Assembly: GCF_044324785.1 (NCBI RefSeq)
Contig: NZ_CP172129.1
Strand: one strand, 5' to 3'
DNA: 64,000 bases
Source of the DNA: Escherichia coli
GTDB taxonomy: Bacteria > Pseudomonadota > Gammaproteobacteria > Enterobacterales > Enterobacteriaceae
Positions 9,799 through 29,630 of this stretch are shown here, in pieces. Position numbers and translations under genes: made by a program. Numbering within the stretch: the stretch's first letter is position 1; each line of letters opens with the position of its first letter. The notes below the pieces were generated by a model. It searched no databases and had not been told where the DNA came from. It saw only the letters and a program-made list of their open reading frames with translations.

Positions 9799-12000
9799 AT
9801 GATGATAAGCAAAAAGTATACGCTTTGGGCTCTCAACCCACTGCTTCTTACCATGATGGCGCCAGCAGTCGCTCAACAAACCGATGATGAAACGTTCGTG
9901 GTGTCTGCCAACCGCAGCAATCGCACCGTAGCGGAGATGGCGCAAACCACCTGGGTTATCGAAAACGCCGAACTGGAACAGCAGATTCAGGGCGGCAAAG
10001 AGCTTAAAGACGCACTGGCTCAGCTGATCCCTGGCCTTGACGTCAGCAGCCGGAGCCGCACCAACTACGGTATGAATGTGCGTGGCCGCCCGCTGGTCGT
10101 GCTGGTTGACGGCGTGCGTCTCAACTCTTCACGTACCGACAGCCGACAACTGGACTCTATAGATCCTTTTAATATCGACCATATTGAAGTGATCTCCGGT
10201 GCGACGTCCCTGTACGGCGGCGGCAGTACCGGTGGCCTGATCAACATCGTGACCAAAAAAGGCCAGCCGGAAACCATGATGGAGTTTGAGGCTGGCACCA
10301 AAAGTGGCTTTAGCAGCAGTAAAGATCACGATGAACGCATTGCCGGAGCTGTCTCCGGCGGAAATGAGCATATCTCCGGACGTCTTTCCGTGGCATATCA
10401 GAAATTTGGCGGCTGGTTTGACGGTAACGGCGATGCCACCTTGCTTGATAACACCCAGACCGGCCTGCAGTACTCCGATCGGCTGGACATCATGGGAACT
10501 GGTACGCTGAACATCGATGAATCCCGGCAGCTTCAGTTGATCACACAGTACTATAAAAGCCAGGGCGACGACGATTACGGGCTTAATCTCGGGAAAGGCT
10601 TCTCTGCCATCAGAGGGACCAGCACGCCATTCGTCAGTAACGGGCTGAATTCCGACCGTATTCCCGGCACTGAGCGGCATTTGATCAGCCTGCAGTACTC
10701 TGACAGCGCTTTTCTGGGACAGGAGCTGGTCGGTCAGGTTTACTACCGCGATGAGTCGTTGCGATTCTACCCGTTCCCGACGGTAAATGCGAACAAACAG
10801 GTGACGGCTTTCTCTTCGTCACAGCAGGACACCGACCAGTACGGCATGAAACTGACTCTGAACAGCAAACCGATGGACGGCTGGCAAATCACCTGGGGGC
10901 TGGATGCTGATCATGAGCGCTTTACCTCCAACCAGATGTTCTTCGACCTGGCTCAGGCAAGCGCTTCCGGAGGGCTGAACAACAAGAAGATTTACACCAC
11001 CGGGCGCTATCCGTCGTATGACATCACCAACCTGGCGGCCTTCCTGCAATCAGGCTATGACATCAATAATCTCTTTACCCTCAACGGTGGCGTACGCTAT
11101 CAGTACACTGAAAACAAGATTGATGATTTCATCGGCTACGCGCAGCAACGGCAGATTGCCGCCGGGAAGGCTACATCCGCCGACGCCATTCCTGGCGGCT
11201 CAGTCGATTACGACAACTTCCTGTTCAACGCCGGTCTGCTGATGCACATCACCGAACGCCAGCAGGCATGGCTCAACTTCTCCCAGGGCGTGGAGCTGCC
11301 GGACCCGGGTAAATACTATGGTCGCGGCATCTATGGTGCTGCAGTGAACGGCCATCTTCCTCTAACAAAGAGTGTGAACGTCAGCGACAGCAAGCTGGAA
11401 GGCGTGAAAGTCGATTCTTATGAGCTGGGCTGGCGCTTTACTGGCAATAATCTGCGTACCCAAATCGCGGCCTACTATTCGATTTCTGATAAGAGCGTGG
11501 TGGCGAATAAAGATCTGACCATCAGCGTGGTGGACGACAAACGCCGTATTTACGGCGTGGAAGGTGCGGTGGACTACCTGATTCCTGATACTGACTGGAG
11601 TACCGGAGTGAACTTCAACGTGCTGAAAACTGAGTCGAAAGTGAACGGTACCTGGCAGAAATACGATGTGAAGACAGCAAGCCCATCAAAAGCGACAGCC
11701 TACATTGGCTGGGCACCGGACCCGTGGAGTCTGCGCGTGCAGAGCACCACCTCCTTTGACGTGAGCGACGCGCAGGGCTACAAGGTCGATGGCTATACCA
11801 CCGCGGATCTGCTCGGCAGTTATCAGCTTCCGGTGGGTACACTCAGCTTCAGCATTGAAAACCTCTTCGACCGTGACTACACCACTGTCTGGGGGCAGCG
11901 TGCACCACTGTACTACAGCCCGGGTTACGGCCCAGCGTCACTGTACGACTACAAAGGCAGGGGCCGAACCTTTGGTCTGAACTACTCTGTGCTGTTCTGA
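9799..12000 (+). CDS. iutA: TonB-dependent ferric aerobactin receptor IutA
   Basis: 733-aa ORF with signal peptide, TonB box ETFVVSA and C-terminal aromatic residue typical of outer-membrane beta-barrels. Confidence 0.9.
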   Translation: MMISKKYTLWALNPLLLTMMAPAVAQQTDDETFVVSANRSNRTVAEMAQTTWVIENAELEQQIQGGKELKDALAQLIPGLDVSSRSRTNYGMNVRGRPLVVLVDGVRLNSSRTDSRQLDSIDPFNIDHIEVISGATSLYGGGSTGGLINIVTKKGQPETMMEFEAGTKSGFSSSKDHDERIAGAVSGGNEHISGRLSVAYQKFGGWFDGNGDATLLDNTQTGLQYSDRLDIMGTGTLNIDESRQLQLITQYYKSQGDDDYGLNLGKGFSAIRGTSTPFVSNGLNSDRIPGTERHLISLQYSDSAFLGQELVGQVYYRDESLRFYPFPTVNANKQVTAFSSSQQDTDQYGMKLTLNSKPMDGWQITWGLDADHERFTSNQMFFDLAQASASGGLNNKKIYTTGRYPSYDITNLAAFLQSGYDINNLFTLNGGVRYQYTENKIDDFIGYAQQRQIAAGKATSADAIPGGSVDYDNFLFNAGLLMHITERQQAWLNFSQGVELPDPGKYYGRGIYGAAVNGHLPLTKSVNVSDSKLEGVKVDSYELGWRFTGNNLRTQIAAYYSISDKSVVANKDLTISVVDDKRRIYGVEGAVDYLIPDTDWSTGVNFNVLKTESKVNGTWQKYDVKTASPSKATAYIGWAPDPWSLRVQSTTSFDVSDAQGYKVDGYTTADLLGSYQLPVGTLSFSIENLFDRDYTTVWGQRAPLYYSPGYGPASLYDYKGRGRTFGLNYSVLF

Positions 12001-12073
12001 CCGGTATTCCTTTACAACAAAGGTACGCTGATATCAACATGGCCGCTGACAGCCAAGTTGATATCATATAATA

Positions 12074-12134
12074 CACGACATAATCTGTAGTCAGGGAGGA
12101 TAGACTCTTTACTGACTACAGATTATGTCGTGTT
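12074..12134. repeat. Perfect 22-bp inverted repeat with 17-nt spacer downstream of iutA
   Basis: acacgacataatctgtagtcag ... ctgactacagattatgtcgtgt read directly from the sequence. Confidence 0.6.
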
Positions 12135-12524
12135 CCGTGCTCATTTCCTCAAAAAATACAAGAAAAGAATTAGTATTCTAACAAAAAGTGAAATAAATTG
12201 TATCAAACTCCCTCTTTTAATCCTGTTGAGTAAATCAGCTTTTGCAATAGGATTGAAAGAGTGTAAGTGGAATCTCTTCCGGATACTCGTTACCACCGTG
12301 GCTAGAATATCTACGGCTGCGGGCCAGTAATAGATTAAGTGATAACAGCTGTCTGGAAATGTAGGGGCGTATCCACTAATCATAATCATTGTGAGATAAA
12401 TATTACGGGGCATTTTATAATGAATAAAATATACTCTCTAAAATATTGTCATATTACCAATACCATGAAGGTGATGCTGCCAACTTACTGATTTAGTGTA
12501 TGATGGTGTTTTTGAGGTGCTCCA

Positions 12525-12800
12525 GTGGCTTCTGTTTCTATCAGCTGTCCCTCCTGTTCAGCTACTGACGGGGTGGTGCGTAACGGCAAAAGCACCGCCG
12601 GACATCAGCGCTATCTCTGCTCTCACTGCCGTAAAACATGGCAACTGCAGTTCACTTACACCGCTTCTCAACCCGGTACGCACCAGAAAATCATTGATAT
12701 GGCCATGAATGGCGTTGGATGCCGGGCAACTGCCCGCATTATGGGCGTTGGCCTCAACACGATTTTACGTCACTTAAAAAACTCAGGCCGCAGTCGGTAA
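12525..12800 (+). CDS. insA: IS1 InsA
   Basis: 91-aa [94 protein letters not shown]. Confidence 0.9.
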
Positions 12801-13222
12801 CCTCGCGCATACAGCCGGGCAGTGACGTCATCGTCTGCGCGGAAATGGACGAACAGTGGGGCTATGTCGGGGCTAAATCGCGCCAGCGCTGGCTGTTTTA
12901 CGCGTATGACAGTCTCCGGAAGACGGTTGTTGCGCACGTATTCGGTGAACGCACTATGGCGACGCTGGGGCGTCTTATGAGCCTGCTGTCACCCTTTGAC
13001 GTGGTGATATGGATGACGGATGGCTGGCCGCTGTATGAATCCCGCCTGAAGGGAAAGCTGCACGTAATCAGCAAGCGATATACGCAGCGAATTGAGCGGC
13101 ATAACCTGAATCTGAGGCAGCACCTGGCACGGCTGGGACGGAAGTCGCTGTCGTTTTCAAAATCGGTGGAGCTGCATGACAAAGTCATCGGGCATTATCT
13201 GAACATAAAACACTATCAATAA
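12719..13222 (+). CDS. insB: IS1 InsB (expressed as InsAB' by frameshifting)
   Basis: 167-aa ORF overlapping insA in the -1 frame, canonical IS1 layout. Confidence 0.85.
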
Positions 13223-13399
13223 GTTGGAGTCATTACCGCCTTGACCATCAGATAGTTATTTTGGTGCTAGGGATACTGAGTGTGAACAGTTAGCGCGCGT
13301 CCTCGCCAGTTAGCTCGCTACGCTCGGTTACACGACGGCTACGAGTACTAGTGATAATTATTGACTGAGGTATGTGCTCTTCCTGTTTCCTTTTTTGAT

Positions 13400-13500
13400 G
13401 TGTTGCTCTCATTTTAAACAACTTTGCGGTTTTTTGACTACTTTGCAATTTTGTTGTTGCTTTGCAATAAAATGCAAGATTAAATGAAAATATGCAAAGC
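13400..13500 (+). promoter_or_regulatory. sopAB promoter/operator with repeated CTTTGC SopA-binding motifs
   Basis: ctttgcggttttttgactactttgcaattttgttgttgctttgcaataaaatgcaag directly upstream of sopA. Confidence 0.5.
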
Positions 13501-17559: not shown

Positions 17560-19000
<1,441 letters not shown>

Positions 19001-20442: not shown

Positions 20443-20970
20443 GGCTTTTCCGGGCGTCCCCCTGGCGGGGCGGGCTGTCGTGAACGGAGCCAGCGGAGCT
20501 GTCTCCGCCCTGGCGGGCTTCCATCCCTGACGCGAAACCATGGCTTGCAGCGACCGTTCCGGTCGCGCCGCCTCTGTCGCGCCGTGGCCTGCGCTCCCGG
20601 CATCCCGGCAAAAGGCGCCGGAATGTAAGGAGCAACGCCGTTTCGCAAACCGCGCTTCACGTCGTTGCGGCGGGTCCCTGCTCATTGCCTGCCAAGTGCC
20701 ACACACCCGTATGAGTCCCTGTCGCCGGGGGCTGAGACAGCCACAACCTGCCGCACTGACTGTCCAGGGTAAATGAACAGCCCACAAAATTTTTTACCCA
20801 GAACCCGGTAAAAAATTTTGCGTTCTGCCCAGGACAGGTGCGTCAGGCCGTGGCAGTGATGCCCCTTGCGGCGAAGGTTCTCAAACGGGTGAAGTTCATA
20901 CCACAGGGAATACAGCAGCAGGTTCCCGCGAAACGTCAAAACCGCGGCTCCCGAAACTCAACGGGTGATG
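20443..20970 (+). repeat. Frpo/ssi-like repeat copy 1 (putative single-stranded DNA promoter), preceded by CT-rich tract
   Basis: About 530 bp nearly identical to copies at 23700-24230 and 29091-29630; begins ccttttccgggcgtccccctggcggggcgggctgtcgtgaacggagccagcggagc. Confidence 0.6.
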
Positions 20971-29090: not shown

Positions 29091-29630
29091 CCTTTTCCGG
29101 GCGTCCCCCTGGCGGGGCGGGCTGTCGTGAACGGAGCCAGCGGAGCTGTCTCCGCCCTGGCGGGCTTCCATCCCTGACGCGAAACCCCGGGCTTGCAGCG
29201 ACCGTTCCGGTCGCGCCGCCTCTGTCGCGCCGTGGCCTGCGCTCCCGGCATCCCGGCAAAAGGCCGCCGGGATGTAAGGGGCAACGCCGTTTCGCAAACC
29301 GCGCTTCACGTCGTTGCGGCGGGTTCCTGCCCGTTGTTGTGTCCGGTGCCATTCACCTGTTTAAGCCCCTGTCGCCGGGAGCTGATACAGCCACAACCTG
29401 CCGCACTGACTGTCCAGGGTAAATGAACAGCCCACAAAATTTTTTACCCAAAACCCGGTAAAAAATTTTGCGTTCTGCCCAGGACAGGTGCGTCAGGCCG
29501 TGGCAGTGATGCCCCTTGCGGCGAAGGTTCTCAAACAGGTGATGGTGAATACCGGAGGGAACAAACGGCAGGTCCCCGCAAAACGTCAAAACCGCGGCTC
29601 CCGAAACTCAACAGATGATGGGGGCTGAAA
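29091..29630 (+). repeat. Frpo/ssi-like repeat copy 3 (putative single-stranded DNA promoter), preceded by CT-rich tract
   Basis: Near-identical to copy 1 over its full length; directly upstream of ORF 29653. Confidence 0.6.

Follow-up and report, generated by a model that had tools for sequence, protein, structure and literature searches.

An orphan RepFIB-type E/F iteron pair downstream of iutA, a candidate RepA-binding site

Overview

The perfect palindrome that lies downstream of iutA in the 64-kb stretch of Escherichia coli DNA analyzed here (hereafter, the window) corresponds, as judged from its sequence, to the inverted iteron pair E/F of the RepFIB replicon, here in orphan form. We consider it fairly probable that this relic is a candidate RepA-binding control-iteron site that may still titrate or handcuff RepA. 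The element is new as an orphan; the RepFIB iterons themselves are already known. Below we describe the palindrome and its distribution, its homology to RepFIB, its separation from repA and the history of the DNA around it, and weigh the other explanations where the evidence bears on them.

Results and Discussion

A single perfect palindrome 3' of iutA

A repeat search of the window placed the two arms at 12073-12094 (reading ACACGACATAATCTGTAGTCAG on the plus strand) and 12112-12133, with 22 of 22 positions complementary and a spacer of 17 nt. The perfect 22-bp palindrome and 17-nt spacer reported in an earlier note on this DNA were therefore recovered, and the span given there (12074-12134) is corrected by one base to the left. 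The palindrome starts 72 nt past the stop codon of iutA (ORF 9799-12000, 733 codons, named from its identity with annotated records), on the sense strand, and 336 nt ahead of an IS1 end at 12470. It is the sole perfect repeat among the 13 close inverted repeats of at least 14 nt in the window, and, by a rough analytic estimate, about 1e-7 repeats of this kind (22 bp, perfect and close) would be expected by chance in 64 kb. The arm sequence had no match elsewhere in the 64-kb window even when three mismatches were allowed, and none of 100 dinucleotide shuffles yielded any arm match. When folded as RNA, the palindrome reaches -40.6 kcal/mol (z = -9.8), with a small inner stem inside the 17-nt spacer. 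Imperfect inverted repeats occur at other places in the window: a 24-nt repeat (96%, 19-nt spacer) at 3269-3335 lies within a shiF-like MFS gene (ORF 2745-3893, minus strand), and a 21-nt repeat (CAGCCCACAAAATTTTTTACC / GGTAAAAAATTTTGCGTTCTG) is present in two identical copies 8.6 kb apart (20778-20827 and 29428-29477).

In 832 plasmid records the 74 nt are matched at 99% identity or above, and 887 complete E. coli genomes also contain them, indicating that the palindrome is no assembly artefact. In a set of 5426 E. coli genomes, palindrome-related sequence was located at 4930 plasmid and 56 chromosomal places; genomes that have it carry it at a median of one place. In the plasmid collection and these 5426 genomes, palindrome-type sequence has two contexts only, after iutA and after repA; thus, the search of related genomes proposed in the earlier note finds the palindrome again behind iutA (the 832 records) and, in diverged form, behind repA. 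Hundreds of ColV-type plasmids, which carry RepFIB as well, have the palindrome in identical form.

The arms match RepFIB iterons E and F

With the 74-nt palindrome as query, approximately 2100 plasmid records matched at 80-90% identity at places without iutA. These matches begin right after the RepFIB initiator gene, annotated 'RepB family plasmid replication initiator', the product of which, RepA, belongs to Pfam Rep_3 (PF01051-type initiator). Past the repA stop, the RepFIB sequence reads TGA-AC-ATAAACTGTAGTCAG-N17-CTGACTACAGTTTAT, and the arm motif recurs further downstream as direct repeats, indicating that the arms are iterons. The right arm (12112-12133, plus strand, CTGACTACAGATTATGTCGTGT) resembles iteron F and has its 15-nt core at 12112-12126; the left arm (12073-12094), which gives the same CTGACTACAGATTATGTCGTGT when read on the minus strand and has its 15-nt core at 12080-12094, resembles iteron E and aligns to the iteron behind the repA stop in two RepFIB loci (L004 and L006).

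The homology covers the whole of the E-spacer-F unit. The inner 49 nt of the palindrome (12078-12126, plus strand) are identical to RepFIB (L004 979-1027) at 43 of 49 positions (88%), over a stretch that begins immediately 3' of the repA stop codon, and the match has an E-value of 5e-8 in 7.3 Gb of plasmids, an E-value of 2e-11 locally and z = 19.5 relative to shuffles. The spacer (12095-12111, plus strand, GGAGGATAGACTCTTTA) is homologous to the RepFIB E-F spacer (ATAAGAGAGACTCTTTA), with an equal length of 17 nt, 13 of 17 identical positions and complete identity over the last 10 nt (AGACTCTTTA). The native pair, the first two of iterons E-K on F, P307, pO157 and ColV plasmids, also has the same 15-nt core (CTGACTACAG-N-TTAT), the same orientation (E inverted relative to F), the same spacer length with an identical 10-nt right half, and core centres that are likewise 32 bp (about three helical turns) apart. 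The core CTSACTRYAGNTTAT, a consensus derived from the E. coli RepFIB iterons of loci L005 and L006, matches each window arm with 0 mismatches, and the two arms are the only sites in the 64-kb window with at most one mismatch to it; one unrelated site with two mismatches lies at 18525, and a 178-kb Klebsiella plasmid has no further core site at one mismatch or fewer. The two differences between the arms and RepFIB form a mirrored pair at the single variable core position, N, which is A in the window arms and not T or C as in RepFIB E/F. A Lelliottia iteron also has A there, and the position varies among genuine iterons too. A protein-binding site was one of the options raised for the palindrome in the earlier note, and it gains support from the perfect match of the arms to the RepFIB iteron core and from the homology of the unit to the E/F pair.

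An inverted iteron pair just past repA recurs in 80 RepFIB-family loci of other species, with spacers of 3-29 nt. Where the RepA of these loci is at least 75% identical to that of RepFIB, their iterons differ from the window arm at 4-7 of 22 positions (4-6 in all but one locus); where RepA is at most 69% identical, there are 6-9 mismatches, mostly 7-9, the shuffled level being about 8. Thus, within the 80-locus comparison the iteron type of the arms is confined to the RepFIB clade of initiators. In RepE and pi-like initiators one monomer covers approximately 19-22 bp, a footprint that, by analogy, would equal the length of an arm here.

The correspondence with the native pair has limits at its outer ends. 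The outer 5-7 nt of the window arms are unrelated to the RepFIB flanks and yet symmetric, giving 22-bp arms as compared to the approximately 15 bp of native pairing, and simple descent from E/F leaves this symmetry beyond the RepFIB-homologous part unaccounted for. A chimeric query made of the repA 3' end and the palindrome retrieved no closer natural RepFIB allele, none of 4347 records having an E/F pair with fewer than six mismatches. In the native RepFIB loci (L004 976-1030 and L009-L033), the repA stop lies 2-8 nt before the left arm or inside it, and the right arm continues into TTTATATT; the native E/F pair may double as a repA terminator.

The iteron pair is separated from repA

RepFIB contains two sets of iterons, an upstream set (BCDD') at the origin and the downstream FIB iterons E-K, which control replication; the EFGHIJ block alone on a P15A vector displaces the pO157 FIB replicon (PMC11983097). 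In other iteron plasmids, control arrays outside the origin are in principle Rep-binding repeats by which the initiator is titrated or handcuffed and incompatibility is expressed (in part, PMC11983097). RepFIB, aerobactin and Sit make up the constant region of ColV and ColBM plasmids (PMC4707298), and our literature search found no relevant link between aerobactin and iterons.

Unlike the native E/F pair, the window pair is not beside repA and is not followed by iterons G-K. RepFIB repA is absent from the 64-kb window, there are no further iteron-like sites near 12134-12467, and instead of a position directly 3' of repA within an iteron array, the pair has iutA and 72 nt of its own flank where repA would be. 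On a plasmid identical to the window around iutA, RepFIB is 18 kb away. All of the sampled records with an intact palindrome (22 of 22) have another RepFIB-type match in the same record, a count that we read as co-residence of the palindrome with RepFIB.

Diverged copies and the history of the iutA flank

The palindrome is altered in Klebsiella virulence plasmids. The copy on pCR-HvKP1-VIR (L003 3174-3240) has a tandem duplication of AGATTA (6 nt) and a G>A substitution in the right arm, and its fold is weakened from -40.6 to -30.7 kcal/mol. This form is carried by approximately 600 plasmid records. The Rep of the Klebsiella plasmid itself has 58% identity to RepFIB RepA, and its iterons differ.

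The chromosomal aerobactin islands carry a different flank. The last 600 nt of iutA are 99.7-100% identical among the window, Klebsiella and a chromosomal island, whereas the flank from 2 nt past the iutA stop is 65% identical between the window and the chromosomal allele (boundary at 12000-12002; L002, L090 and L103). The reverse combination is found in E. fergusonii, in which a divergent iutA (84%) is followed by a window-type flank (91%), and an IutA type of 89% identity also has the chromosomal flank allele. Because the identities of gene and flank conflict among the window, the chromosomal island and E. fergusonii, we take the 3' flank to consist of two old alleles that recombined onto different iutA genes.

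Low as its identity is, the chromosomal flank allele keeps collinearity with the window through the palindrome. The similarity is weak but significant (z = 5.6), its score being reached by 0 of 500 shuffles; three control regions were null in the same test. A degenerate right arm (CTGAATAACATTATGTCTGT) can be recognised in it at the corresponding position, and six of the seven differences between the window and RepFIB E/F are common to the chromosomal copy, indicating that the latter is a decayed sister rather than unrelated DNA. A break in plasmid-chromosome homology exactly at the left edge of the palindrome was considered as well and was rejected, since low-identity scoring shows collinearity and the real discontinuity is the iutA stop. 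The unit has 0 lineage-specific changes in the window and 13-14 in the chromosomal allele, an asymmetry that comes from a single comparison in a window-anchored alignment, the left half of which is aligned differently by MAFFT, and that is not proof of selection.

No iteron is present in the unrelated flanks of the chromosomal aerobactin loci of C. koseri, Salmonella, Cedecea, Kluyvera and Pseudocitrobacter, indicating that the iteron module belongs to the mobile E. coli/Klebsiella locus. Across three lineages only, the unit is intact together with RepFIB (ColV-type plasmids), bears damage in the virulence plasmids of Klebsiella, which have no RepFIB-clade Rep, and has decayed in the chromosomal allele; this pattern is consistent with, and no proof of, continued RepA binding on ColV-type plasmids.

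A candidate control-iteron site and its closest alternatives

How the orphan pair could act is suggested by the native replicon. In a normal RepFIB, the E/F unit begins 2 nt past the repA stop and more iterons follow; together these are bound by the initiator RepA, and replication is restrained by titration and handcuffing. In the window, the E-spacer-F unit occurs alone, 72 bp past iutA. On ColV-type plasmids RepA would be expected to bind both arms still, in which case the site would constitute a small extra control-iteron pair, serving as a weak RepA sink, a handcuffing partner or an IncFIB determinant, and the palindrome would have no necessary part in iutA expression. Attachment of the E/F unit to the mobile aerobactin locus presumably predates the divergence of the two 3'-flank alleles, and the relic has stayed intact on RepFIB-bearing plasmids and decayed elsewhere. 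The site probably binds RepA still, adding marginally to the pool of control iterons. Against this explanation, a single pair falls far short of the block for which incompatibility has been shown, and the usual context of the family is missing, with neither an adjacent repA nor iterons G-K; the extra symmetry of the arms and the lack of a closer natural E/F allele also count against it.

It is possible, if doubtful, that the palindrome has the same origin in RepFIB E/F but is an inert fossil, with the site unbound or without effect, and that its perfection stems from the youth of the ColV lineage or from arm-to-arm template-switch correction of a quasi-palindrome, not from selection. An orphan without repA or other iterons is what such a fossil would look like; the Klebsiella duplication and substitution are close to the neutral rate of the surroundings, the E. 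coli copies are so nearly clonal that their identity tells little, and the symmetric 5-7 nt beyond the homology would fit extension of a palindrome by template switching. Less easily explained by inertness is that both 15-nt cores are perfect in the window even though the chromosomal sister lost them (0 as compared to 13-14 changes), and that the adjoining flank is just 65% identical between the two alleles.

A somewhat more tentative proposal goes in the opposite direction, namely that the orphan pair is a selected, working cis-element, a docking site for RepFIB RepA inside the aerobactin locus that would feed into copy control or incompatibility of RepFIB plasmids. Under this same proposal the element would be kept intact while the locus rides on RepFIB plasmids and would decay after a move to the chromosome or to a plasmid with another initiator.

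Transcript structures downstream of iutA

A strong stem-loop just 3' of a gene and on its sense strand is also what Rho-independent terminators and 3' stabiliser hairpins look like. Accordingly, the 22-bp stem could be an RNA element of the iutA transcript that terminates transcription or blocks 3' exonucleases, stabilising aerobactin mRNA; we regard this as improbable, a minor possibility that could coexist with either RepA binding or inertness. The very strong fold and the location 72 nt past the stop mean that any read-through transcript would form the stem. Nevertheless, in contrast to a terminator, with its GC-rich stem, short loop, U-tract and conservation with the upstream gene, the palindrome has an AT-rich stem (41% GC), a 17-nt loop, the sequence TCCGTGCTCATTTCC and no U-tract after the stem, and is not conserved with iutA, since neither the chromosomal flank allele nor the loci of other genera have it. 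A terminator scan of both strands over 12000-12200 found nothing at the palindrome or at the neighboring hairpin described below, and an Rfam search of 11000-13500 at E up to 10 returned chance-level hits only, none near a gathering score and none a match for the palindrome.

The structure that is conserved is another one, hairpin 1, which lies between iutA and the palindrome (arms 12029-12043 and 12052-12066, 15 nt with one mismatch). It is present in both flank alleles with differing arm sequences, three pairs having changed on both sides in a compensatory manner, and 87% of cells are paired as compared to 22-50% when the partners are slid. Hairpin 1 likewise lacks a U-tract; it is likely the real 3' structure of the iutA transcript. 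Taken with the empty scan and the missing U-tract, its conservation and the absence of the palindrome from other aerobactin lineages speak against the terminator that the earlier note had offered as one option.

A mosaic between iutA and IS1

The interval between iutA and IS1 had been described as an AT-rich spacer. The AT-rich context is borne out (26-43% GC over 12000-12450), but the interval is in fact a mosaic of fragments. iutA's own flank, including hairpin 1, is followed by the E-spacer-F unit and then by approximately 170 nt of AT-rich sequence (12134-12304, 26-40% GC). This third segment is met solely in linkage with iutA, its ORFs have no Pfam hit, and it shows no similarity to RepFIB loci. 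The fourth fragment (12305-12375) comes from an IS2-like (IS3-family) element, of which it is the terminal ~70 nt, and has 85-90% identity to the IS ends of many plasmids; homology to the Klebsiella virulence plasmid stops 11 nt past this terminus. The fifth comprises the promoter region of a SPATE-type autotransporter gene together with its first 16 codons; this gene start (12420-12469, MNKIYSLKYCHITNTM) is truncated at 12470 by the IS1 end (GGTGATGCTGCC). Over 30 nt it shares 90% identity with the start of sat, the gene found after iutA in chromosomal islands, and an autotransporter gene 3' of iutA may be an old arrangement; the 23-aa stub itself had no hit in Pfam. The sole recurrence of the IS1-proximal 77 nt is in a scrap flanked by IS1 (L007), and an E. 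albertii plasmid has only the first autotransporter codons in common with the IS1-proximal flank. Elsewhere on this plasmid, the sit/crcB region, which precedes the aerobactin locus in NZ_CP023363.1, a plasmid otherwise identical to this one, has been replaced, and at the opening of the window (422-2751) an IncQ-type RepC gene (Pfam RepC, E = 6e-145) abuts an IS26-type transposase.

This setting bears on two further explanations. It is very unlikely that the palindrome marks a recombination hotspot or a recombinase site, that is, a junction produced by breakage of a cruciform or hairpin, or the target of a RepFIB-linked tyrosine recombinase. Only the palindromic unit is common to RepFIB, with homology ending within a few nt of the arm ends, a tyrosine recombinase gene adjoins the RepFIB iterons, and there has clearly been recombination between gene and flank close to the iutA stop; against this, the arms consist of the iteron motif that is also used as direct repeats and are thus Rep sites, the collinearity of the chromosomal flank allele means that the palindrome edge is no simple breakpoint, and the 17-nt spacer is unlike the core expected for a tyrosine recombinase. 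Such core sites are typically 6-8 nt.

Scarcely credible, finally, is a miniature mobile-element remnant with the arms as terminal inverted repeats, the former being an option in the earlier note, or a dispersed palindrome of the REP/ERIC type. The perfect arms, short interior and IS-rich surroundings (IS1 at 12470, the IS2-like end at 12305-12375) would suit such an element, but there is no flanking direct (target-site) duplication (TCATATAAT as compared to TCCGTGCTC), the window and each replicon hold one copy, and that copy is always beside iutA or repA in the 5426 E. coli genomes. REP, ERIC and BIME families have many copies per chromosome, as compared to only 56 chromosomal places in all of these genomes.

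Comparison with other Rep-binding sites

Control iteron arrays outside the origin exist in incC of F (RepFIA) and in incA of P1. The window palindrome would be like these in principle, as Rep-binding repeats that do not fire replication, but incC and incA consist of five to nine direct repeats beside rep, whereas the window has one inverted pair, and the nearest RepFIB is approximately 18 kb from a window-type pair on a comparable plasmid. The operators of Rep_3 replicons (repE of F; repA of pPS10 and pSC101) are palindromes of iteron sequence that are bound by the initiator. These operators are made of partial, closely spaced half-iterons, overlap the rep promoter and are bound by dimers; in the window, by contrast, both iterons are full-length, 17 nt separate them and a rep promoter is absent.

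Implications

Descent from RepFIB E/F accounts for a conspicuous palindrome that has gone unannotated in E. coli and Klebsiella virulence plasmids, of which well over a thousand sequenced examples carry it. With the palindrome assigned to this origin, the question of where the iutA transcript ends moves to a different, covarying hairpin (12029-12066). The palindrome also records in its sequence that the mobile aerobactin locus was long ago physically linked to a RepFIB-type replicon, and this footprint, faintly seen in chromosomal pathogenicity islands, argues for a plasmid ancestry of the islands. If RepA still binds, the pair would be an extra control or incompatibility determinant relevant to the copy number of ColV plasmids, and it would bear on plasmid-curing designs that rely on the FIB downstream iterons. 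Were the orphan pair a selected element, a virulence locus would carry with it a piece of replication control that ties it to one plasmid family.
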